DNA of 64,000 nt. Source: Reclinomonas americana ATCC 50394 (taxonomy: Eukaryota). The stretch is from assembly GCA_048213135.1 (NCBI GenBank), contig PS015009.1, forward strand, positions 1,488,001-1,552,000, in the 5' to 3' direction. The position numbers were made by a program, and so were the translations under genes. The notes beneath the pieces were generated by a model. The model saw only the letters and a list, made by a program, of their open reading frames with translations. It was not told the DNA's origin and made no database searches. Below, piece by piece: positions 675-61,601 of this stretch; within the stretch, counting starts at the first letter, position 1; each line of letters opens with the position of its first letter.

Positions 675-1832
675 ATGGACAATCACACAGAACGGATATG
701 GACACTGATGGCCCGGAAACTCTCCGGTGAGGCTTCTGCGGAAGAGCTGCAGGAATTGGAGCAATTATTGTGGCAACATCCTGAAGGCAACTATTCGATG
801 GAAGTGATGCAGGACCTGTGGAAAAGCAAACCCGCAGCCGACCGCCAGTATGCGGAGAACGAATACCGCAAACTGGCCCAGAAGCTGATCCAGTCTGGTG
901 ACGGGGAGTTTGAGGACCAGGAAGCCCATTATGTTACTGAAGATGTTCACGGGGAAGCCGTTCACGAAGAGATTACTTATGAAGAACCGGCCCGCAAAAG
1001 AAAATGGATGCCCTGGGCTTTTGCCCTGGGTGCAGTTATAATAGCCGCCTCCGCGTTCCTGTACCAGCAGAATGGGAGCGATAATAAAACAGCCGCGGAA
1101 ATGCCGGCCCGCAACGAGATCAGCACCCGGTACGGGTCTAAAACCAGCCTGGTGCTGCCCGATGGCAGTAAGGTATGGCTGAATGCCGGCAGCAAACTGA
1201 GCTACGACAAAAACTATGGAAATTCCCTTCGTGAAGTAACCCTTGCCGGGGAAGCCTTCTTCGACGTGGTGAAAAACCCATCCCGCCCCTTTATCATCCA
1301 CACCAGCAAAATGGAGGTCCGCGTGCTGGGCACGGCCTTCAATGTAAAATGTTACCCCGACGAAAAGAAGACAGAAACGAGCCTCATCCGCGGCAGTGTG
1401 GAGATCACACTGAAAAACCGCCCGGAAAAGATCGTACTGAAACCGAATGAAAAGATCGTTATTAACGACGACGAACCAGGTGATGAGCAGCCGGTGCAAA
1501 CGACTGCTGCTAAATCCGGTGGTGGTCCTGTGAAGGCAGCCGAACCCATTTTTACCCTCGAACATGTAACCCGCGAACCGGTAAATAACGAGATCATTGA
1601 AACCTCATGGATCGATAACCGGTTGATATTCAATAATGAAACTTTTGAAGAGATTGCCGTTAAAATGGAACGCTGGTATGCCGTTCATATCAGTGTGGAA
1701 AATGAGAAACTGAAGAAAAAGCGCTTTACCGGCACCTTCGAGAATGAAACGATAAGCCAGGCACTCTCGGCCATGCAACTTACCCTGCCCTTTGGGTACT
1801 CGATCAGCAAAGACCAAATCATCATTAAATAA
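675..1832 (+). CDS. FecR-family anti-sigma factor
   Basis: TM helix then FecR motifs LPDGSKVWLNAGSKL, GEAFFDV, VLGTAFNV; ATG at 675 preferred over the GTG at 657. Confidence 0.93.
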   Translation: MDNHTERIWTLMARKLSGEASAEELQELEQLLWQHPEGNYSMEVMQDLWKSKPAADRQYAENEYRKLAQKLIQSGDGEFEDQEAHYVTEDVHGEAVHEEITYEEPARKRKWMPWAFALGAVIIAASAFLYQQNGSDNKTAAEMPARNEISTRYGSKTSLVLPDGSKVWLNAGSKLSYDKNYGNSLREVTLAGEAFFDVVKNPSRPFIIHTSKMEVRVLGTAFNVKCYPDEKKTETSLIRGSVEITLKNRPEKIVLKPNEKIVINDDEPGDEQPVQTTAAKSGGGPVKAAEPIFTLEHVTREPVNNEIIETSWIDNRLIFNNETFEEIAVKMERWYAVHISVENEKLKKKRFTGTFENETISQALSAMQLTLPFGYSISKDQIIIK

Positions 1833-1891
1833 CAAAAACTGCCACACATGAGAAGACCCCCCTACTACAACACAGCTTAAGCCATAAAAAA

Positions 1892-1917
1892 CCGGGAAAT
1901 GTTGGCGCATTCCCCGG
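1892..1917 (+). promoter_or_regulatory. Stem-loop in fecR-susC intergenic region
   Basis: CCGGGAAATG-TTGGCG-CATTCCCCGG imperfect inverted repeat. Confidence 0.4.
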
Positions 1918-1996
1918 CGAGGCTAATAATGGAAAACCTGCAACGTTCGACTGCTGCACAAGTTTCCGCTATTTCATTAACCCAAAAACTAAAAGT

Positions 1997-4900
1997 ATGA
2001 AAAAAACTCCACCCCTGCGTGCTTCCGGCGGGCAGGGCCTTATTAAAGTCATATTGCTTATGAAACTTACGATTGCTTTCATATTGATGACAACATTAAA
2101 CGTATCTGCCAACGTTTTTTCCCAAACCAGAATCACCTTAAAACTGCAATCAGCTGAACTGAAAATGGCGCTGAAGCAGATCGAGAAAAAAAGCAGCTAT
2201 CGTTTCCTCTACAACGACGACGTGGTTTCTTCCAACCGTAAAGTAGATATCAACGCCAACAATACCCTGGTTACCGAAGTGCTGGACAAAATGTTCAGCG
2301 AAGGCGAACTGGGCTACCGGGTACTGAACAATAACCTGGTGGTGATCACCTCTAAAAATGCTGAGGTCAACGACATCCGCGTGTCGGGCCGCGTTACCAA
2401 CAGCGACGGTTCACCCGTTCCCGGCGTAAGCGTTAAAGTGAAAGGCTCATCGGCCGGCACTTCCACAGGTTCGGATGGCTCCTATTCCATCTCTGTTCCC
2501 GATGGCGCTACACTGGTCTTCTCCTCTGTGGGGTACGAATCGGAAGAGATAAAAGTAAGCGGCCGCTCCACCATCGATGTGGTACTGAGGAATTCGGTAA
2601 AACAGATCGAACAGGTGGTGGTAGTGGGTTACGGCTCACAAAGGAAGATAGATGTAACCGGCGCTGTGGGAACGATCAAAGGCGACGAGATCTCCAAACA
2701 ATCTTCGGTTAACGCGGTAAGCGGTCTGCAGGGTAAAGTAGCGGGTGTGCAGATCACCAATAACGGTGCGCCCGGCTCCGCTCCCGATATTAAGATACGT
2801 GGTGTGGGTACCGTTTTCGGAAGCTCCCGTCCTTTATTTGTTGTAGACGGGGTTTGGTTCGATGACATCAGTTTCCTGAACCCGGCGGATATCGATAACA
2901 TGAGTATCCTGAAAGACGCTTCCAGTGAATCCATTTATGGTATACGTGCCGCCAATGGTGTGGTACTCATCACTACCAAAAAAGGAAAAGCCGGCAAAGC
3001 ACAGGTTACTTATAATGGTACTGTTGGCTATCAGAAAGTGACCAACCAGGTAAAAATGGCCAATGCCCGCGAATACACTACGCTGGTAAATGAAAAGGAC
3101 AATGCCCAAACACTTGATCCTGCCAGGTACAATGTTGATGGTACAGACTGGTACCACCAGATACTCCGCAATGCATTTGTGACCAATCACCAGATCTCCG
3201 TATCCGGTGGTGCCGACAGGTCCAACTATAATGTATCCTTCGGTTTCCTGGACCAGGACGGCCTGGTAGAGACCAATAATTATAAAAGGTATACGGCCCG
3301 TCTTCAACATGAAATAGAAGTGGCCAAACCTTTCAAACTGGGTTATACACTTACAGGGGCCTATATCAATTCAAGAGACATCAACGGTGGTATTTTCAGG
3401 CAGATGTACACCGCTTACCCGGTGCTGCCGGTTTATTATGCAGATGGTTCTTATGGCGATGCCGGCGATTACCCGTTGGGTGATGGCGCCAAATACAATC
3501 CGCAGGTTACCATTGATTACTTCGATCAGAACACCAAACAATATCGCCTGACCGGTAATGTGTTCGGCGAACTGAAATTCCTGAAATACTTCACCTTCCG
3601 CTCCAGCATCGGCGGAGAACGCACCGATCAACTGGTAAGGAACTATGCCCCGGTATACAACCTCGGTCCCTCTATGCGTAACGACAGCAGCCTGCTCACA
3701 CTAACGGAAGAGCGTACACGTAACTGGTTGCTGGAAAACACATTGACATTTGAGAAAAGGTTTGGCAAACACAGTGTAAAAGCGCTGGCGGGACAGGGAG
3801 CCCAATCCTATCGTTTTTACAAACGTATCGGCTCAGCTAAAAACCTTCCCAATGGCAGCACCTTCGATTATCTTTCATTGGGTGTGAGCCAGAATTACAG
3901 GGATGTTGACCTGCCCAGCTACCCGCTGTACAGCACCATCGCTTCTTATTTCGGCCGTATCAATTATTCCTTCAATAACAAATACATGCTCACGGCTTCC
4001 ATCCGTGCGGACGGCTCTTCCAAATACGCTGCGCCTAACAAATGGGGATACTTCCCGTCTGTGGGTGTGGGTTGGGTAGTAACGAAGGAAAAATTCATGG
4101 AATCCCAGAAAATATTCGACAACCTGAAACTGAGGGCCAGCTGGGGTAAAGTGGGTAACGCTTCCGTACCGGCCAACCTGTCTGTACAGTCTGTAACGCA
4201 AACACCGCAATTGGTGGCCATTTTTAATGGTCAGACTTACCAGGGCGCCAGCATCGATAAGATCGTTCCACCCACCACATTCTGGGAAAAGAGTGAAGGA
4301 ACCGATGTGGGTGTTGAAGCCACCTTGCTGAAAAACAGGTTAAACGTAGAGATCGGTTATTATAACAGGAAAACGCTCGACGCGATATTTGAAATTCCTA
4401 TCCTGGGATCACTCGGTGTATCCGGTAGTTCCATCATTGGTAACCAGGCCACTTTCCAGAACAGGGGTATGGAATTCCTCGTTAACTGGAAAGACGACCT
4501 GAATAAGAATATCTCCTATTCTGTAAGCGCCAACTTCGCTTTCAATAATAATAAAGTGCTGTCTACCGCAACAGGGGCCAACCCTATTTATGGCGGTGGA
4601 GCCGGCCTGGCCAACGGCTCACTGGCAACACGTACTGTACTCGGACAGCCTATTGGTCATTTCTATGGTTACCAGGTAGGCGGTATCTTCCAGACAGACG
4701 CGGAAGCGGCACCATGGAACGCCAAAGCCGGCGACTTCAGGTATGTTGATCAAAACAATGATAATAAGATTGATGGTTCTGACCGCGTGGTACTGGGTAA
4801 CCCCAATCCTAAGTACTCTTATGGCATCAATACCAACTGGACTTACAAACAATTTGACCTGGCCGTTGACTTCCAGGGTGTGGCCGGTGTGCAGATATAC

Positions 4901-54067: not shown

Positions 54068-55321
54068 TTAATTGGGGTTTAATACTGATTCAATAGTGGC
54101 TATTTTACCAACCAGGAAGTCTTCATATATTTTGTTGTGCTCGCTGCGGTTGTATTCCCTCCCTTCAGACAGCCAGGCATACCAACCCACCATAAATTGC
54201 GACAGCGCTTCTTTTACTGCCTTGGGCTGCACAATGGTGCCATCAATTACCTGCTTTAGCTTTTTCATTTCCACATTGTTTTTTTCGTTGGCTATTCGTA
54301 GCTCGGTAATGGTATTTTGATACTGGTTTATCTCCTGCTCATGGGTATGTATCTGCTCTCTTTTTGTTTTGATAGTGACCTTCACAATATCGAGCTTGGC
54401 ATGTGCTTCTATCACAAAATCGAACACAAAGCCCCAGATGAGGTACACCACAAACCCGGCAAAAATGACCAGCCAGAAGCCTACGCTGGCAAAGGCTAAG
54501 CCTACCGAAAAATCGGGGATATTGCCAGCCAGGTCATTCTCCTTTTTGATGTTGTATATTTTTTCGGTGATCTCGTAAGCGATAATAGCGTCGAAAATAA
54601 AAGTGATGACGAGTAGGGCTGCTATTTTAAAATATTTGCCGAGACCTTTCCCTTCCTGGAATTTATGGATGAGGTAACCCAGCCCGATAAACACAAAGGG
54701 AATGGTGAGTATAAAAATGAGTTCGGTAACGCCATCTTTCAATGCGTTGCCAATAGCATTGGCATCAAAAATTGCCTTGGTAACCACCACATCATCTGCT
54801 TTAAACTCTTTGAAAAAAGCGGAATAAGAAGCAGAGCTGTAAAAAATAAAAAGATAGATGGAGAGCAGCAGTAAGATAAACACGCCGATATAAAACCCGG
54901 CTTTACCTACATGCACGCCAGTGTACTGCTCCGGGTTCTTTCTTATGTCTGAAATTTCTTTTTGTAGTTCTTCTATCCTGGTTTTCTTAGCAGGTATCAG
55001 CTCTATATCGTACATGCTGATCTGGGATTTTATGCCTTCACTATGGCCCGTTAATTCCTGTAAGGCTACTTTGTAGGGCTTGCGCAGCTCTTCCTGCTTG
55101 TTTCCGTCTCTTTCCATTTCGGCCATATGCTGCTCATACACGGCATCCAGGCATATCCGCAGCCCTTCGGTACGCCCCTTCATCATTCCTGCCTGCACGA
55201 ACCCAAACCGGCGGTACGATACTTTTTCATCTGGCTGTTGCTCCGGGCTTACAGGAGGAGCCGGCTCCGTTTTTTGCGAGAACAAACCAGGTATTTTAAA
55301 TTTTGAAAGATCGAAAGCCAT
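54068..55321 (-). CDS. Membrane protein with four TM helices flanked by coiled coils
   Basis: Hydrophobic core residues about 140-305, heptad-rich flanks. Confidence 0.75.
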   Translation of the reverse strand: MAFDLSKFKIPGLFSQKTEPAPPVSPEQQPDEKVSYRRFGFVQAGMMKGRTEGLRICLDAVYEQHMAEMERDGNKQEELRKPYKVALQELTGHSEGIKSQISMYDIELIPAKKTRIEELQKEISDIRKNPEQYTGVHVGKAGFYIGVFILLLLSIYLFIFYSSASYSAFFKEFKADDVVVTKAIFDANAIGNALKDGVTELIFILTIPFVFIGLGYLIHKFQEGKGLGKYFKIAALLVITFIFDAIIAYEITEKIYNIKKENDLAGNIPDFSVGLAFASVGFWLVIFAGFVVYLIWGFVFDFVIEAHAKLDIVKVTIKTKREQIHTHEQEINQYQNTITELRIANEKNNVEMKKLKQVIDGTIVQPKAVKEALSQFMVGWYAWLSEGREYNRSEHNKIYEDFLVGKIATIESVLNPN

Positions 55322-55325
55322 AAGA

Positions 55326-55727
55326 TTAGTTGTTTTGAGTTACAAAATCGATGAGGTCGGTAGCAGGCATATTATCTTTTGCAGCCTCAATTAATAATTG
55401 CGCTATCAGGGGCGCATTGTTTTCTTCAAATTGAAATTTGCCACAAAGCTTTTCCAGTGTTGTTATTTCATGCGCATGCACCTGTCCGTCGGCCCATATC
55501 ATTTTTGCATAATCGTACAGGTATTCAATTTTTTCACTGAGCGTTTCCGGCAGGTACACTTCTCCGGCTGGGATCGGGTTCAGCAACATAGCGTCTATCT
55601 TTTCCCTGGGAAGGCCCCTTTCTTCCGCCAGCTTGTATAGTACGGCTATTTCTTTTTCATCAAATGCTGAATCGGCCAATGCCATGGAATACAGGTTGAG
55701 GAAATGTAACTGGAGTTCTGATGACAT
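55326..55727 (-). CDS. TerB-family protein
   Basis: MALADSAFDEKE and MIWADGQVHAHE repeats. Confidence 0.85.
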   Translation of the reverse strand: MSSELQLHFLNLYSMALADSAFDEKEIAVLYKLAEERGLPREKIDAMLLNPIPAGEVYLPETLSEKIEYLYDYAKMIWADGQVHAHEITTLEKLCGKFQFEENNAPLIAQLLIEAAKDNMPATDLIDFVTQNN

Positions 55728-55771
55728 AATGTATATAGGTTTATAAGCGTTATAAAATAGGGCTGCTGTAA

Positions 55772-56545
55772 TTATGTTTCGGGAACTACTGCCGGGTCGT
55801 CGGGCGCCGGGCTTTCTGCCTTATCCTCTTTTTTCTTTTTTGCTTTTACTTTGGAGGATTTGAATGGTTTTATGAGCGCCGGGTCCATCTTCTCTTCCAT
55901 GATCTTGTGCACGGCCGCCAGGATGATAGCATTATCACATTTTTCATTGTACCTGGCTTTGATCATCTTTTTAATACCATTCAATACCGCATCGGAACAG
56001 AGGATGCCGGCAATATTGTAAGGATCGGTGGCTTCGCATTTGTTCCAAAGGGGCTTGAACAGGTTTTTAACCACGCTTTCTTTATGCAGGTGCTGTAAGT
56101 GATTGGCTGCATTTTTTAAACCGGCAGCATCGCTCAGGTCTATCGCAAATATTAAGCGGGAGGAGATGGGCTGCTCAAATATGATCTTATAAAACTCAAA
56201 ATTTCTGCCGTTGGTAAGCAGGGCATATTCTATACCTTCATTAGCGCCATAGTTCACCGTTTGCCGCAAATGTTTTTCGGATAGCTGGAAGGAAAGGGCT
56301 TTTACTTCTACCAGGAAATGCCTTGTTTTATTGACCTGTATCACATAATCGGCATAGGTGCCTTTGATCATGTACTCTGTTTTTATTTCCTCCAGCTGCT
56401 TATAGCCCAGCACATCCGATAAAAAACGGTTGATCATGATCCTGGTGCCGGATTCATCCAGCTCTTTGATATTGCCGTCTAAAAATTCTTTCCGGTAAGC
56501 TTTGAGGGCGGTGAGGAGTTTTTGTTGCTTCAATGCTGTAAGCAT
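55772..56545 (-). CDS. Stand-alone HsdR N-terminal (PD-(D/E)XK-like) domain protein
   Basis: DESGTR, LGY, ADY, LVEVKA, QTVNYG, ALLTNG; no helicase domain. Confidence 0.85.
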   Translation of the reverse strand: MLTALKQQKLLTALKAYRKEFLDGNIKELDESGTRIMINRFLSDVLGYKQLEEIKTEYMIKGTYADYVIQVNKTRHFLVEVKALSFQLSEKHLRQTVNYGANEGIEYALLTNGRNFEFYKIIFEQPISSRLIFAIDLSDAAGLKNAANHLQHLHKESVVKNLFKPLWNKCEATDPYNIAGILCSDAVLNGIKKMIKARYNEKCDNAIILAAVHKIMEEKMDPALIKPFKSSKVKAKKKKEDKAESPAPDDPAVVPET

Positions 56546-56581
56546 GGTAGTTAGTTTTGAATGAGCGGATAGCTGTGTTTT

Positions 56582-56625
56582 CAAAACTAGTATGGGGACT
56601 TATCATTTTATTACGGCAAACCGTA
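56582..56625 (-). promoter_or_regulatory. TACGG-N4-CCGTA box plus -7 element (copy 3)
   Basis: TACGGCAAACCGTA 56612-56625, 22 bp, TAGTTTTG (minus) 56582-56589. Confidence 0.75.
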
Positions 56626-56674
56626 AGCAGTGATTTTAACCGGTGTAAGTATCAGTGTGTAGTGCAATTATTCT

Positions 56675-57166
56675 TCAGGGCTTACGCCATTGCCATGGTG
56701 GAGTAGGATTTTCGTCTGCCCAAAGACCGACTTTTCTTTGCCGGGCTATAGTTTCCAGCTCGTCATATGATTTGTCGGTCGAATGCTTTAAAAAATGCCA
56801 GGCAAGGCCAGCCTTAACCAGCGCTTTGTTTACATTTTCATTTTTGCCGGTAATAATGACGGCTATACATCTCTTATACCGGTCAAACTTCCCCTCATTT
56901 TCAACAGTCACCCATTGCCCAAAGCAAATGCCGGAGGTAAATTTTTTTGCTGCTTGCGCAAAAGGCTGGTGCTTTTTAATTTCAGGGCAGTCAATATGTG
57001 CAAGCCTGATGACTACAGTATTTTCCTTATACAAAACCTCGATAGTATCGCCGTCTTTGATTGCAATCACTTTAGCCTGGAATACTTTTGGAAGGTTTAA
57101 CTGCAGCCCCTGCCCTATGGATGAGAAAGCAAGCAGAAAGTATACCACAATGGAGGATAGGTTCAT
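56675..57166 (-). CDS. Thermonuclease (SNase-like), secreted
   Basis: IKDGDTI, IRLAHIDCPE, DRYKR, LVKAGLAW, VGLWAD. Confidence 0.92.
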   Translation of the reverse strand: MNLSSIVVYFLLAFSSIGQGLQLNLPKVFQAKVIAIKDGDTIEVLYKENTVVIRLAHIDCPEIKKHQPFAQAAKKFTSGICFGQWVTVENEGKFDRYKRCIAVIITGKNENVNKALVKAGLAWHFLKHSTDKSYDELETIARQRKVGLWADENPTPPWQWRKP

Positions 57167-57253: not shown

Positions 57254-57919
57254 TTACAATACACCTGCCTCCTTGCAAAATAATACTAACTGCTCATTCT
57301 TCGAAAAGCCAAGTTCTTCCCTGATCTGGTTCAGGCGCTTTTCAATGGTACTTAGACTTGAGGGCCTGATATCGTGTAGCTTGAGGTAGGCTGGTATTTC
57401 ATTTTGCTGGTAACCCTGGGAGAGCAACCGGATAATATTGATATCGAATTCTGTAAACTCGTAGGTATTGGATTGTTTTACGAGCTGTGCCAATGCCCTG
57501 GGATAGTATTGCTCTCCTTTTGACAAGGCATCAAGCGCTGCCTTCAATTCTTTGGCATCATGCCGGGCCTTACGTACATAGGCATCTACTTCATAATTCT
57601 TAAACAACATATCGATAGTAGCGGGACGGTTTTCCGCAGAAAAGATAAGGATCATGATACCGGGCTGCACTTCACGAACTGACCGGATAAGGTCAAACCC
57701 GCCAGCTATTTTTTGGAAACTGCCATCAGCCTCAAAATACAGGTCGGTGATCAGCAGGTCATAAGGCTGGCCTTTTTGCTTAGCCAGCTGTATTTTACTC
57801 AACGCATCATCGCAATAGAATGCATAGTCCACTTCCCTGATGAGTAAATCTTCCATAGTTTTTTGTACAGAAAGATTGGCGATTTCCTGGTCTTCGGCAA
57901 TAATAACTTTATCAATCAT
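57254..57919 (-). CDS. Response regulator (REC plus LuxR-like HTH)
   Basis: IAED, LLITDL, YVRK; C-terminal STIEKRLNQIRE; overlaps kinase stop (ATGA). Confidence 0.9.
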   Translation of the reverse strand: MIDKVIIAEDQEIANLSVQKTMEDLLIREVDYAFYCDDALSKIQLAKQKGQPYDLLITDLYFEADGSFQKIAGGFDLIRSVREVQPGIMILIFSAENRPATIDMLFKNYEVDAYVRKARHDAKELKAALDALSKGEQYYPRALAQLVKQSNTYEFTEFDINIIRLLSQGYQQNEIPAYLKLHDIRPSSLSTIEKRLNQIREELGFSKNEQLVLFCKEAGVL

Positions 57920-59652
57920 ATTTTATTAGATTCCAGTGGAAAGCTGATCGTAATGGATACGCCGTCTTTTTCACTTTTTCCAAAATTAACCTCCCCATGT
58001 ATTGATTTAATACGGCTAACCGTATTATTCAGACCGTTTCCAAATTTGAACCCGGGCTGAAATCCTAAGCCATCATCTTTATATATGATAAAGCTTTTGT
58101 TGTCTTCTTGTTTGAATACGATTGCCACGTTTTTGGCCTGGCTATGTTTTTTCATATTCACCATGATCTCGTTGAGGATCAGTTGCAGCTCATGTTTTTG
58201 AATGCCGGTGACCCTTTTCCAGAAGGTTGAGTTATTACCTACTATAATTACATTAGTTTGACCATCAGCAAAAGCATTCAGCAGATGATGCACTTTATTA
58301 TTATAATCTTCATTATCATTGGGAGCGATCTCTTCATAAGAGATATTGCGTGATTTTTCATACAAGTCCTCGATCTTATTGATGAGTGGCTCCAGTTCAA
58401 TGGTTTTATTGTGTTCCAAACCGTTCATGATGCCATAAAGTCCGTTGGCTACCACATCGTGTATTTTTTGAGAAGTTTTCAATTTGGAGTTGCGTATAGT
58501 ATTTTCGGCCTCCTGTTGTACCCTTTTTCTGCGTTTTTTGTAGCTGATATAAAGCCAGGTGATAATACATGTGGCAATAACAATCAATGCATACATTAAT
58601 AATCGCTGAGTAATAACATGTTGCCGTAAAATCAAATTATTCTCTCTTTCCTGCTGGAAGTCATATATTACCTTAGCAAAGCGATTTTTTGTTGTATTTC
58701 TTGCAAACGTAAGGCTGTCATCAAGTATTTCATGTTCAATATACCATTGATCTTTAACCGGGGAAATTTTACTGAGTTTTATCAATTTATCCATGGCTTC
58801 GAGCCGGTCATCAGGATTTTTATTTTCTGTTGCCCTTTTAAGCATTTTTTGAGCATATATTATTGCCGAGTCGGGGTTTGATCCTTTATAATAGTCTGAC
58901 AGATGCGCATAGCTGGCATTTAATCCTGATGTATCCGTAGTCTCTGCTCGGGTCTTTAAAGCAGACCAGAATTCTGGTAAGGCAGGGTAATTTGGGTTTT
59001 GCAGCCATTTTGTTTTGGCCCTATTGTCGATCACCCTGGCCATAATTAACTGGTCTTCGGGTTTTAATGTGATTATAGAATCGTATACAGCAATAGCATC
59101 ATTGAGTTCCCCTTTTTTTTGAAACGCCGTCGCCTTACCATTCAGCGGTTCATACATGTAGTCTAACCCTTTTAAAACAGTTATTGCTGTACTATAATCA
59201 GTGATGGCTTCATCATAAAGTTTTAAATCCAGGTTCACGTTACCTGATATATTATATGCAGCCCCTAATTCTTCCCGCAGATTTAACTTGAGCGAATCCA
59301 ATGTATTAACTGTTATTCCAGAATCAGGAATGGCTTGTATCAATTGTTTTGCATCGAGCAGGTTTAATGTATGAACTGCATTATTTAGATATTCCTGGGC
59401 TTCATACAGATTACCTGCTCTCCATAGAATTTCCCCCATAAACCTGTAGGCTCTCCCTTTTTTAAAACTATCATCCGGGTTATTTACATAGCGGCTAAAC
59501 ACCTGGAAAGCAGAATCGAATTTTTTATAATAATAGAGGTAATACCCGCGATCATAATCCGTTTGCCTGCCAGTGTTTTTTTTCGATTGTTGATTGCATC
59601 CACAAACTGTAACAAAAACTGCAATGAATAATAATGGACTAAATGTTTTCAA
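57916..59652 (-). CDS. TPR-containing sensor histidine kinase
   Basis: Signal/lipobox VCGC, TPRs, TM, H-box SQKIHDVVANG, N-box NEIMVNMKKHS, DDGLGF, GNGLNN. Confidence 0.9.
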   Translation of the reverse strand: MKTFSPLLFIAVFVTVCGCNQQSKKNTGRQTDYDRGYYLYYYKKFDSAFQVFSRYVNNPDDSFKKGRAYRFMGEILWRAGNLYEAQEYLNNAVHTLNLLDAKQLIQAIPDSGITVNTLDSLKLNLREELGAAYNISGNVNLDLKLYDEAITDYSTAITVLKGLDYMYEPLNGKATAFQKKGELNDAIAVYDSIITLKPEDQLIMARVIDNRAKTKWLQNPNYPALPEFWSALKTRAETTDTSGLNASYAHLSDYYKGSNPDSAIIYAQKMLKRATENKNPDDRLEAMDKLIKLSKISPVKDQWYIEHEILDDSLTFARNTTKNRFAKVIYDFQQERENNLILRQHVITQRLLMYALIVIATCIITWLYISYKKRRKRVQQEAENTIRNSKLKTSQKIHDVVANGLYGIMNGLEHNKTIELEPLINKIEDLYEKSRNISYEEIAPNDNEDYNNKVHHLLNAFADGQTNVIIVGNNSTFWKRVTGIQKHELQLILNEIMVNMKKHSQAKNVAIVFKQEDNKSFIIYKDDGLGFQPGFKFGNGLNNTVSRIKSIHGEVNFGKSEKDGVSITISFPLESNKI

Positions 59653-59750
59653 GAAGTTCTAATTTTCTTAAATATAGAAAAAGAAAAATCGATGTCATAA
59701 TGAAAGTAGTTTCGGTTTATTTAAAAATGATGTTGCACCAGGCATCGAAT

Positions 59751-59782
59751 AAAAAAAGGCTGTCCTATAAGAGACAGCCTTT
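59751..59782 (-). terminator. Terminator between peptide gene and kinase
   Basis: AAAGGCTGTC...GACAGCCTTT stem with T-run on the minus strand. Confidence 0.75.
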
Positions 59783-59793
59783 ACTGTTAATTA

Positions 59794-59955
59794 TTAACCC
59801 CCGGGCGGTGGAGGAGGTGGAGGTGGCAGCTTAGGACCGCCCCCGGTTTCGCCCCCGGTATCGAAATGTTCCAGGTTACAGTCGCCGTGATTTTCTACTG
59901 TATGGTTTGGGTTGGGACATAAGAATGCCCCTAACCAGATAATGAGGATTATCAT
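59794..59955 (-). CDS. Unannotated 53-aa peptide: hydrophobic leader, DTGGETGG core, Pro8 tail
   Basis: MIILIIWLGAFLCPNPNHTVENHGDCNLEHFDTGGETGGGPKLPPPPPPPPGG; ATG after an A-rich leader, double TAA, own terminator. Confidence 0.75.
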   Translation of the reverse strand: MIILIIWLGAFLCPNPNHTVENHGDCNLEHFDTGGETGGGPKLPPPPPPPPGG

Positions 59956-60203
59956 TGTTTAATGATTTAAATTGTTAGAAAAATTTGCTCATACGCGGTC
60001 GCGGACCCGGATGAGACGGTTGTGTAAGCAGCGCTACTTACGTTGGGAAGAAAGCACGTTGATCGCAGTAGGGTTAACAACTTCCCTTGCCGGCTAACCT
60101 TGCCGCGACCTTCGCACTCAGCTGATCAACTGGAATGTTGTCTGTTTTACCAATTGATCGTAATGCAAACATACATTCGGCTAAAAGCCTGATCTGCAAA
60201 CAG

Positions 60204-60310
60204 TTCCAATAATTCCAATGATTCCAATCATTCCGGTTTCCCGTAACGGGTTATTCCGGTTATGCAGTAATTTTCCTGAACTATTCCATTAATTCTATTT
60301 GTTCTATATC
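60204..60310 (+). promoter_or_regulatory. 9-bp-period TTCCAAT repeats, fourth TACGG-like box and -7 element
   Basis: TTCCAAT at 60204/60213/60222; TCCGGTTTCCCGTA 60232-60245, 22 bp, TAATTTTC 60268-60275. Confidence 0.6.
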
Positions 60311-60329
60311 TTGATTGATATAAATACTA

Positions 60330-61308
60330 ATGTTATTTCTATTTAAAGACTACACGGACCTGGTACTAAAAGCTTATGAAGAAAGACGGGATGCCAACCA
60401 GCTTTCTCAATTGCTGATGTACCCAACAACTGCTAATATTAAGCTGGAGTGCATTAATGTTTATAATGAAAGATTTAAAAGAGGAGAACCGGTAGAGGAG
60501 AATACCCTGAGAGCATTTTTTGGTATACTGCCAGAGGGAAAGCATTTCGGCAACCTTATCGAAAAATGCAGCCCGGATAGGTTCAGGCCTATTCAAAACC
60601 TGATCCGGAAGGAAACAAAAAGTCCGGCTTCTGCTAATGTGGAATTACTGGCCTGGTTAATTGATTTTAACCCCAGGCCACTAAGTCGCGCCGAAAAAAT
60701 ATTTGGAAGTACTGATGAAATCGCCGATGCTGACGACCAGGTGCCGGATACGAACCAACCCCCGGTGCTGACAAAGCCGGTATATCTTGAAGCAGGCAAA
60801 ACCCTGGTTCCCGGTATTGAAAATCCCCAAAAACCCTCTCCGAAAAGTCAAGGGAAAAATTTAGAGAACAAGAGATTGAAAATAGCTGCTGCCATTAGTT
60901 TGATGATGGCAATTTTTTTTTGGAGGAATGTATATCAGGAAGCACCAAAAATCTGATGAAATGGCTTTTGGAACATCAAATGCACAATGTATGTATTGGG
61001 CAGGCGATCACTACGAACCCACACCCTGCAACGACAAAGGAAAAGGGTTCCTGTTTCCGCTGGACAAAGAAAAGATGAAGAGTTTTAAAAAGATCACACG
61101 CAAAGACACCATAACGGAATGGTCTATCGGGAAACTATACTACATAAAAAACAATAATGATATTGAGTGCTATACAGAAGGGGGTATTTGTCCTGAATAT
61201 TCTTCCCGGAAATTGAAGATGCTTTCACGTGATATGTATGACAAATACCTGCGTAAAGGAACTCCGGGCAAGGACTCTATAGCTGGAAAAAGCAAAAAGG
61301 TTGAATAG
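60330..61308 (+). pseudogene. Single membrane-anchored protein split by a T9 frameshift (or assembly error)
   Basis: Removing one T at 60913-60921 joins ...AISLMMAIFF to GGMYIRKH...CMYWAGDHYEPTPC: soluble N-domain, TM, Cys-containing C-domain. Confidence 0.7.
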
Positions 61309-61601
61309 CAGATAAACGACCTGTTAGGATGAGGGGTTATGTGAAACTACCCTCCATTGCATGGCCCGGGATTATCACTTTATATGAAGCCGGATGACGT
61401 ATAGACGCTCTCGCGAATCATAGCACACGCCTGTTATTTAGCACATGAGGGCTAATGTTTTCAGGCACACAATATCGTAATAGCGCCCACCTCATCGGGT
61501 AACCGGTTAGCTATTTGCACAATCGGGTTAATGAAAACCCGTAAAAAAACGGTAGTAAAGTCACCAAACCTGCCTTTCATTTGTCTACCTAAACCAACAA
61601 C

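Follow-up and report, generated by a model that had tools for sequence, protein, structure and literature searches.

A window of 64,000 nucleotides (nt) of DNA (positions 1,488,001 to 1,552,000 of the forward strand of contig PS015009.1, assembly GCA_048213135.1, deposited under Reclinomonas americana ATCC 50394) carries a 53-codon open reading frame (ORF) upstream of a sensor histidine kinase with a periplasmic array of tetratricopeptide repeats (TPRs). This ORF is a real gene under protein-level selection. It belongs to a conserved module of four parts, the peptide, the kinase, a response regulator and a divergent gene (here called c0), in which a translated small protein is preceded by a structured leader RNA. 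The peptide is the best candidate yet for the signal of a widespread class of Bacteroidota TPR sensor kinases. That it is exported or membrane anchored and works in trans on the periplasmic TPR domain, either as its built-in ligand or as a modulator in a feedback loop, is an explanation to which we give about an even chance of being right.

Conservation and coding selection of the small gene

The features of the module are the following, in positions of the window.

59794 to 59955, minus strand: peptide ORF of 53 amino acids (aa), with a hydrophobic N terminus, a DTGGETGG core and eight consecutive prolines
57916 to 59652, minus strand: sensor histidine kinase of 578 aa, with a TTG start at 59652
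57254 to 57919, minus strand: response regulator of 221 aa, with a receiver (REC) domain and a NarL/LuxR-type C-terminal region
60330 to 61308, plus strand: divergent gene c0, split there into ORFs 60330 to 60956 and 60928 to 61308
60203 to 60234, minus strand: four GGAAY direct repeats with 9-nt spacing, a presumed operator adjoining the peptide promoter upstream
60166 to 60173, minus strand: TATGTTTG, a -7 box that fits TAnnTTTG
59956 to 60160 (wider estimate to 60174), minus strand: structured 5' leader RNA of ~190 nt, delimited by covariation and a covariance model
59755 to 59782, minus strand: terminator-like hairpin of 12 bp with a 4-nt loop and a U-run, 11 nt past the peptide stop
59669 to 59676, minus strand: TATATTTA, a -7-like box 17 nt ahead of the kinase TTG, with a putative promoter role

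Read along the minus strand, the order is the GGAAY array, TATGTTTG, ~200 nt without a credible ORF, the peptide ORF, the hairpin, TATATTTA, the kinase and the regulator. The end of the kinase gene and the start of the regulator gene overlap by 4 nt.

A scan of one genome per species recovered 527 relatives of the kinase, and the best 80 of the 527 were retained with their flanks. Represented among these loci are Ferruginibacter-like Chitinophagaceae, Chitinophaga, Niabella, Pedobacter, Mucilaginibacter and Sphingobacterium. With a profile made from the 33 first examples, 76 of the 80 loci proved to have a homologue of the small ORF upstream of the kinase gene and on the same strand as it; the remaining 4 include less than 210 nt of upstream DNA, and hence the ORF is present in all 76 testable loci. 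The first-pass annotation of the window had proposed the ORF from the sequence alone and had named the lack of a comparable small ORF upstream of homologous kinases as the outcome that would speak against it; both the ORF, with its hydrophobic N terminus, DTGGETGG and Pro8, and its homologues are there. The profile matched with E ≤ 0.01 in 66 of the 76 loci, and the 10 weaker matches were accepted because they occupy the same position and the motif is visible by eye. The 76 loci span Chitinophagia and Sphingobacteriia, at 32 to 56% kinase identity, and keep the gene order peptide, histidine kinase, response regulator. Clustering of ORFs gave a fixed core composed of c0 (76 loci), the peptide, the kinase (81/81 sources) and the regulator (78/81). 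The peptide ORF ends ~45 to 220 nt ahead of the kinase start in 74 loci; it lies 1.0 kb upstream of the kinase in locus L009 and 2.7 kb upstream in locus L017.

Profile searches of whole genomes found one strong copy of the peptide per genome in three of three cases; of 301 genomes drawn evenly from the phylum, 5 contain a copy. In all four newly found genomes, the kinase lies downstream of the peptide and the divergent gene upstream. Two of these four extra peptides were matched by the seed profile, whereas the other two were read off ORFs from matches of the A2 profile.

Selection on the ORF acts at the level of the protein. Purifying selection, the lack of which would have counted against the proposal in the first-pass annotation, is apparent from a median pN/pS of 0.39 over 190 pairs of the 20 closest peptide sequences, with pS near saturation (0.68), and from codon use, 10 of the 12 invariant residues being encoded by two to four synonymous codons. 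Sequencing run X3, from a strain 95 to 99% identical to the window, contains no differences in the ORF and 10 in the spacer at 59626 to 59783, among the 40 of 64 differences listed. A run labelled RNA-Seq covers only positions 59204 to 59478, inside the kinase gene; it is probably DNA and has no bearing on expression.

The peptide belongs to no Pfam or NCBIfam family according to scans of both libraries. A search with the single 53-aa sequence gave no matches, which reflects a limit of sensitivity, since a profile search of public protein sets later reached 204 homologues at E ≤ 0.01. These are called "hypothetical" where they are named at all, apart from one UniRef entry of the family that was automatically named "Secreted protein," and the family comprises 341 representative clusters at 50% identity. 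The motif is always C terminal in a stand-alone small protein, and no fusions occur among the database members; the longer "proteins" of the family are cases in which the start codon was called too far upstream, through the leader. A metagenomic protein of 114 aa (P0325) carries the C-terminal motif (VDTSGDQSHFPPGPFG...) three times in tandem behind a single N-terminal hydrophobic segment.

The window peptide, MIILIIWLGAFLCPNPNHTVENHGDCNLEHFDTGGETGGGPKLPPPPPPPPGG, consists of a hydrophobic N terminus ending in C-P, a polar segment with His, Asn and Cys, the DTGGETGG core and then PKLPPPPPPPPGG. Family-wide, the N terminus is a Met followed by ~13 hydrophobic residues and closes in (C/S/N)-P; the middle is a polar stretch of Asn, Thr, Ser and His, enlarged in Pedobacter to an acidic linker rich in Asp, Pro and Gly; and the core (D)TGGE(T/G)Gx(I/V/L)PP is followed by a short end rich in Pro and Lys. 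A small ORF with a hydrophobic N terminus and a conserved C-terminal motif may encode a propeptide, but a basic n-region is lacking. Other features are restricted to clades, namely the Cys after the hydrophobic stretch, a second Cys, the His residues and the long poly-Pro. Thus, the Pro8 tail and the GG..GG spelling, which had been taken as a general mark of such peptides, are not universal, the ends being IPPRKP in Chitinophaga and VPPKNP in Pedobacter, and models that rest on Pro8, lipidation or metal binding are weakened accordingly.

Two assignments of the N-terminal part were considered and rejected. Lipoprotein character is not a universal feature because the Cys is replaced by S, N or T in Pedobacter-type members and the residue preceding it is F or L in the window clade. 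A double-glycine leader does not fit either because the GG pairs lie inside the conserved C-terminal core instead of ending an amphipathic leader.

Control region of the peptide gene

The spacer between c0 and the peptide is of nearly constant length, ~350 to 377 nt in most loci, and contains GGAAY repeats on the peptide strand, between -340 and -250 from the ATG; in 56 of 72 loci, two or more of them are spaced at exactly 9 nt. The GGAAY triple match is the sole one in the 64-kb window (0.04 expected by chance); an additional, degenerate GGAAY pair lies at 60283 to 60296, beside c0. No other GGAAY arrays that would mark a regulon were found in the window, in which one-mismatch doublets number 13 against 6.3 expected, all those away from this locus being chance-like. 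The array is presumed to be the operator of a transcription factor, and the protein that binds it would be the response regulator.

The consensus of Bacteroidota -7 promoter elements is TAnnTTTG. A box of this type, TAtnTTtG, is at least 90% conserved at the 5' end of the 74-sequence alignment of the leader. The first-pass annotation had credited the peptide with a promoter and a terminator of its own. The terminator and the -7 box are both there, but the box lies ~210 nt ahead of the ATG, behind the long structured leader, and not beside the ORF.

The leader folds into helices P1 to P5 according to RNAalifold. An invariant GGGAAG in the loop of P3 (60081 to 60086) is complementary to an invariant CUUCCC at 60045 to 60050, both being at least 90% invariant, and this combination suggests a pseudoknot, so that the leader RNA is probably pseudoknotted. 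The P4 hairpin follows at 60024 to 60041, and the P5 hairpin, at ~59987 to 60017, is followed by a U-run at 59979 to 59983. Folding extends P5 to an 11-bp GC-rich hairpin, then AAUUUUUU, in most of the close sequences, and P5 with its U-run is a possible attenuator just ahead of the ORF.

Covariation supports this structure. Among 19 leader sequences, 92.9% of the cells pair, and 21 pairs are doubly changed, compared with 9.1 ± 2.0 in shuffled alignments (0/500); when the helix partners are slid, pairing falls to 28 to 45%. A covariance model built from these sequences and searched against 784 kb, including the whole window and leaving out L019, L024, L040, L055 and L066, matched exactly once in each of 74 of 80 sources; every match stops at the peptide ATG, and no further ones were obtained. 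The sources without a match are L032, L063, L065, L073, L077 and L082. In the alignment fitted to this model, and hence to be read with that fit in mind, 41 of 42 pairs are doubly changed, in 438 cells compared with 130 ± 10 after shuffling. The matches, one per locus, extend over Chitinophagia and Sphingobacteriia. Comparison of positions 59000 to 61500 with Rfam 15 gave no relevant match at E ≤ 1, the sole row being a plus-strand ylbH-leader over the terminator and the ORF end (E, 0.83), which scores 18 bits where gathering requires 50, and the leaders of 12 related loci gave no Rfam match at the gathering score. The leader is put forward as a candidate for a new class of regulatory RNA and may respond to a signal of its own.

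Two other readings of the leader DNA were examined. A 37-aa frame, "MLT.LRST.FLPNVRSASYK," was rejected as a second ORF; it varies at none of the three codon positions, and its apparent conservation arises because the RNA helices are conserved. The palindrome GTAAG.AGCGCT.CTTAC is less likely to be a DNA operator than an RNA hairpin, since two sequences have changed to a U-G pair, which is not symmetric.

An explanation centered on the RNA would make the ~190-nt leader the main actor, as a riboswitch or a small RNA that may be released at P5 and its U-run, with the ORF as a secondary passenger of a transcript that has two functions. The strong covariation, the family-wide conservation, the invariant complementary GGGAAG and CUUCCC and the terminator-like P5 and U-run right ahead of the ORF are all in keeping with such a role. 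Conversely, selection on the ORF is clear at the amino acid level, the ORF is never lost (76/76 testable loci), and the leader always ends at the ATG, like a 5' untranslated region. We regard this explanation as very improbable, although a role for the RNA and one for the peptide are compatible with each other.

Past the ORF, a hairpin with a U-run begins at most 26 nt after the peptide stop in 65 of 74 loci, mostly at 3 to 16 nt. The stem sequence AAGGCA(G/A)G recurs among loci. That distant genera share a terminator stem (AAGGCAG / AAGGCAAG ... CTGCCTT) is unusual for an intrinsic terminator, and the conserved stem may serve a further purpose. Terminator and kinase start are 7 to 120 nt apart, and 22 to 30 nt apart in the close clade. 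Of the 41 loci covered (out of 76), 29 have a TA..TTT[GA] box 18 to 29 nt ahead of the kinase start, namely all 12 Chitinophaga-like loci, 12 of the 13 from the close clade and 5 of the 16 Pedobacter-like ones. Positions 59698 to 59671, ahead of the kinase, are picked out by a sigma-70-style scan as well. Two loci separate the genes altogether. In L009, a Sel1-like repeat gene on the opposite strand (3296 to 3781, minus) lies between the peptide and the kinase, and in L017, the two are 2.7 kb apart, with three ORFs in between (1175 to 4001); the peptide gene, the leader and the terminator are nevertheless all intact in both. Together, the -7-like box and these separations suggest two transcription units and a product that acts in trans. 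The first-pass annotation had supposed that the terminator attenuates the kinase; some read-through may occur, but the kinase and the regulator probably have a promoter of their own.

These observations bear directly on the alternative that the ORF encodes a cis-acting leader or arrest peptide, the translation of which governs the hairpin past the stop and, thus, read-through into the kinase and regulator genes. The event proposed could be a stall at Pro-Pro or poly-Pro, slow termination behind a C-terminal Pro, or an arrest like that of SecM, MifM or VemP, freed when the N terminus inserts into the membrane. The layout lends itself to this, with a hairpin 3 to 16 nt past the stop in most loci, which a ribosome at the ORF end would overlap (≤26 nt in 65/74 loci), and with ~20 conserved C-terminal residues, a hydrophobic N terminus and a variable linker. 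In the close clade, long poly-Pro is paired with a terminator-to-kinase distance of just 22 to 30 nt, and for that poly-Pro clade the mechanism is plausible; in E. coli, a PPPPPP site ahead of the pyrL terminator raised termination without EF-P (PMC5021804).

Several features of the wider family do not agree with control in cis. Long poly-Pro is clade specific, many members having just IPPRKP or VPPKNP, and the invariant PP has no set distance to the hairpin. The two loci (L009 and L017) where simple co-transcription with the kinase is impossible retain an intact peptide gene, and the -7-like box, found in 29 of 41 loci, stands at a fixed distance ahead of the kinase start; co-transcription with the downstream genes seems not to be obligatory. 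Finally, the long structured leader is left without a role. For the family as a whole, we consider cis-acting control improbable.

The TPR kinase and its candidate ligand

The kinase has a signal or anchor at residues 1 to 19, a periplasmic TPR domain at 20 to 349, a transmembrane (TM) segment at 350 to 370 and a cytoplasmic part with a HisKA_3-type H-box and HATPase_c. Hydropathy reveals only two hydrophobic segments, 1 to 19 and 350 to 370, the second followed by KKRRKR, from which it follows that residues 20 to 349, the TPR array, are extracytoplasmic. The Pfam scan places TPRs within the first 200 residues and HATPase_c at the end, and the catalytic part matches the LiaS/NarQ/NarX class in NCBIfam. 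Motifs H398-D399, N499, D526xG528xG530 and G538-L541 are invariant. The regulator matches Response_reg with 24.8 bits, under the Pfam cutoff of 30.2, and an RcsB-like NCBIfam model with an E of 2e-10; no GerE match was obtained for it in the Pfam scan. The pair thus has the H-box, N and G boxes, HATPase_c and RcsB-like regulator of HisKA_3/NarL-class two-component systems. The proposal that the ORF lies upstream of a kinase with an extracytoplasmic TPR array and a coupled regulator is borne out by Pfam, by hydropathy and by the 4-nt overlap of the two genes.

Homologues of this kinase exceed 1,000 (at least 1,081 at E ≤ 0.001 among the candidates scored). Across 79 kinases, the mean frequency of the commonest residue is 0.54 in the periplasmic domain, compared with 0.59 in the catalytic core, and 22 periplasmic positions are at least 95% conserved, many of them polar or aromatic. 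Such positions include D46, S47, D61, N81, N171, N210, W216, R235, S247, Y248, Y254, Y255, D312 and S313.

The model of the TPR domain is a superhelix (pLDDT, 90; pTM, 0.83). Its best matches among solved folds are LGN/Pins TPR proteins with extended partner peptides in the channel (E, 2e-7), and the Rap-Phr* complex of pLS20 ranks 47th (E, 5e-5; TMq, 0.61; rmsd, 4.5). An array of the peptide-binding type, as the first-pass annotation supposed, is what these models resemble. When the TPR domain (residues 20 to 349) was co-folded with residues 14 to 53 of the peptide, no alignments being used, the score was 0.48 (runs of 0.45, 0.48 and 0.51), compared with 0.00 for all three controls; the partner pLDDT was 47 to 49, and at least 46% of the contacts were common to the runs. 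The mark applied is reached by 51 of 78 solved complexes and by 2 of 108 mismatched pairs. Co-folding, another check suggested at the outset, ended in a weak pass.

The mechanism that we favor would run as follows. A pre-peptide of 47 to 75 aa would be made, and its hydrophobic N terminus would carry it into or across the inner membrane. There, the invariant TGGETGx(I/V/L)PP with the Pro-rich tail would dock in trans in the concave TPR channel and set the activity of the kinase, making the peptide a built-in ligand or feedback modulator and not a strain-specific pheromone. The peptide would form its own, tightly controlled unit, in which the GGAAY operator, probably bound by the regulator so as to form a feedback loop, is followed by the TAnnTTTG promoter, the ~190-nt leader, which may attenuate at P5 and the U-run, the ORF and the terminator. 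The kinase and the regulator would probably be transcribed from their own promoter as well. A more specific form, in which an exported peptide, its synthesis gated by a riboswitch-like, pseudoknotted leader, is the cognate ligand of the TPR kinase and the phosphorylated regulator on the GGAAY array closes an autoinduction or feedback loop, is possible but doubtful.

A number of points weigh against a trans-acting ligand. The terminator 3 to 16 nt past the stop in most loci fits a cis-acting leader peptide equally well, and so does the conservation of the last ~20 residues, which are the part in the ribosome tunnel. The N terminus of the peptide lacks a basic n-region; not all members have its Cys, and in the window clade, a bulky residue precedes that Cys. 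The fold matches of the TPR domain are generic TPR likenesses. Among co-fold passes up to 0.60, wrong ones outnumber right ones unless the proposed pair was already a likely one, and the pass obtained here falls in this weak band and offers weak support for contact, the peptide's own fold being uncertain in the model. Co-variation between peptide and TPR domain, which the first-pass annotation had suggested as a check, was examined as correlated deviation and did not reach significance; in the loci with variant motifs, the excess of changes at conserved periplasmic over cytoplasmic positions gave a P value of 0.14 (one-sided Mann-Whitney test). The three most deviant peptides (L075, L041 and L042) do accompany the most periplasmic and almost no cytoplasmic deviations. 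Finally, the peptide may pair with the periplasmic domain of c0 instead.

The first-pass annotation had proposed a circuit of quorum sensing or autoinduction, that is, a diffusible pheromone that is processed and released and that would report cell density to the TPR kinase. The order of peptide, kinase and regulator and the direct repeats ahead of the promoter mirror the three-component systems of Firmicutes; a hydrophobic N terminus with a conserved C-terminal part is found in propeptides of the Phr and SHP types; and TPRs bind such peptides in RRNPP receptors, Rap-Phr being among the fold matches. However, a core motif that hardly varies across two classes provides no strain or species specificity. 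This near-invariance argues against a specificity-bearing pheromone and fits a conserved partner, be it the TPR groove or the ribosome. Furthermore, the genes conserved in the 4 kb to either side in the 80 loci include no ABC exporter, C39 peptidase or other processing function, and the outer membrane separates the periplasm from the medium. Quorum sensing in the strict sense is thus not borne out, with neither pherotype divergence nor a conserved exporter or processing gene nearby, and a diffusible pheromone appears to us improbable.

Divergent gene, cargo and relation to known systems

A homologue of c0 lies divergently upstream in 76 loci, and the alignment spans both of the pieces into which the gene is split in the window. 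The split is caused by one extra T in the run at 60913 to 60921; in three independent DNA runs from other samples, this run is shorter by one T, so that the frameshift, seen only in this assembly, is either an error of the assembly or a variant homopolymer length in this strain. With one T removed, c0 is a single ORF of 325 aa. Thus, the divergent membrane protein of the first-pass annotation is indeed a conserved member of the module, but it is a single gene, cut in the window by the extra T. The protein is bitopic, with a cytoplasmic N-terminal domain (~115 aa, ELLAWLIDFxxRP), an acidic linker, one TM segment and a periplasmic C-terminal domain (CMYWxGDHYExxxC...), which is conserved and has two near-invariant Cys residues. 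Its model has a pLDDT of 80.7, with both domains above 90. No Pfam, PADLOC or NCBIfam family covers c0, and fold searches gave nothing below E = 1 in Foldseek and a best Z of 3.8 in VIA-align, where rows of the helix-turn-helix type (POU-specific, HicB, MuB-N and XRE) come near the top, all far below a meaningful level. A protein of ~90 to 100 aa with a signal-like N terminus and a Cys-rich C-terminal motif of DUF5763 is often encoded beyond c0, in about a dozen close loci (for example, L013, 2029 to 2322, minus strand), and small DUF5763-like ORFs also occur downstream of the regulator elsewhere.

Behind the regulator lies variable cargo (54068 to 57166, minus strand), which comprises the following genes.

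56675 to 57166, minus strand: SNase protein (Pfam)
55772 to 56584, minus strand: HSDR_N_2 protein (Pfam)
55326 to 55727, minus strand: TerB-domain protein (Pfam)
54068 to 55321, minus strand: multi-TM protein of 417 aa with coiled-coil-like stretches, the third member of a trio with the HSDR_N_2 and TerB proteins

The HSDR_N_2/TerB/417-aa trio is also found behind the regulator in L011, L015 and L034, and other loci carry HNH-like genes with DUF4407, or DUF4236, or SNase cassettes at this position. A conserved sensor core with swappable cargo suggests that the cargo is a regulon, and on grounds of position, the cargo genes may be members of it. PADLOC found in the cargo a REase-like N-terminal domain, an SNase domain and a weak TerB-type row. 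These are domain-level matches, which alone do not establish the "defence island" on which the module had been placed; the case for it is weak.

The conservation of c0 and the variability of the cargo are central to one more alternative, in which the peptide is an output and not an input, namely a regulated product such as a small envelope or stress protein or a partner of the periplasmic domain of c0, and the TPR domain senses another thing. In its favor, the peptide promoter is apparently regulated, with a repeat array common to the divergent c0; c0 is as strictly conserved as the peptide and has the conserved periplasmic domain with its two near-invariant Cys residues; the downstream cargo varies, as would be expected of a regulon; and there is no significant correlated deviation between peptide and TPR domain. 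Set against this are a sensor domain that is unusually conserved beside an invariant peptide motif, the weak co-fold pass with zero-scoring controls, and the presence of one peptide gene per kinase gene and none elsewhere in the genomes examined. An output role is, in our judgment, rather unlikely, if somewhat less so than a pheromone or a leader peptide.

A built-in ligand or modulator of the TPR domain would find its nearest functional analogues in MgrB-PhoQ, CpxP-CpxA and LiaF/LiaI-LiaS, in which small accessory proteins act on sensor kinases. The likeness lies in a small protein gene beside or under a two-component system whose product would act on the sensor side as feedback. As in cpxP-cpxRA, there is a divergent gene with a common regulatory region; as in liaIH-liaGFSR, a regulated promoter is followed by a small gene, a terminator and then the kinase and regulator, and the catalytic part of the kinase is of the LiaS/NarX class. 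Unlike in these systems, the sensor is a TPR superhelix, and the peptide has a conserved C-terminal Gly/Glu/Thr-Pro motif instead of a TM helix or a folded domain. Pfam and NCBIfam indicate no sequence relation to them, and the long structured leader and the phylum, Bacteroidota, differ as well.

RRNPP receptors (Rap, NprR, PlcR, PrgX and Rgg) are cytoplasmic one-component regulators that bind an imported peptide. The module resembles them in having a putative TPR receptor beside a small gene for a possible propeptide with a conserved C-terminal part, and Rap-Phr is among the fold matches; here, however, the TPR domain is periplasmic, not cytoplasmic, so that a ligand would not need import by an oligopeptide permease, and is fused to a HisKA_3/HATPase kinase, the motif shows no diversification by species, and the host is Gram negative. 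ComC/D/E, PlnA/B/C/D and AgrD/C/A are three-component peptide pheromone systems of Firmicutes and share with the module the order of peptide, kinase and regulator and the direct repeats upstream of the peptide promoter. In contrast to them, with their polytopic HPK10 kinases and LytTR regulators, the kinase is a two-TM HisKA_3 protein and the regulator is NarL/LuxR-like; the usual double-glycine leader is lacking, and no exporter, C39 or AgrB-type gene is conserved within 4 kb in the 80 loci, the genomes beyond these flanks not having been searched. The regulatory leader and arrest peptides pyrL, mgtL/mgtP, SecM, MifM and VemP resemble the peptide in being short ORFs that end just ahead of a hairpin and have a Pro-rich or conserved C-terminal stretch, and SecM, MifM and VemP also in the hydrophobic N terminus. 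The differences are that a separate promoter probably serves the kinase and regulator here, that poly-Pro is not universal and that the gene survives separation from the kinase.

A literature search, which covered few subscription journals, turned up no report of a TGGETG-type motif or of the module. The peptide family and the leader RNA are undescribed in the searched literature and family databases, and the module combines, in concept, known ideas, namely a small accessory protein of a kinase, peptide recognition by TPRs and the order of peptide, kinase and regulator. It lacks the features that define RRNPP systems or those of the Agr/Com/Pln type.

Bacteroidota very commonly encode "TPR repeat-containing sensor histidine kinases," none of which, to our knowledge, has a known signal. 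One large orthologous group of these kinases carries a dedicated small protein and a structured RNA, with no exception in the loci examined. The module therefore bears on what TPR kinases sense and on how peptide-type signalling might cross the periplasm. If the leader-gated, exported peptide is indeed the cognate ligand in a self-contained circuit with the kinase and the regulator, it would be the first defined ligand for this large class of Bacteroidota sensor kinases, and the circuit would be the first in which peptide sensing of the RRNPP type has a counterpart outside the cytoplasm.

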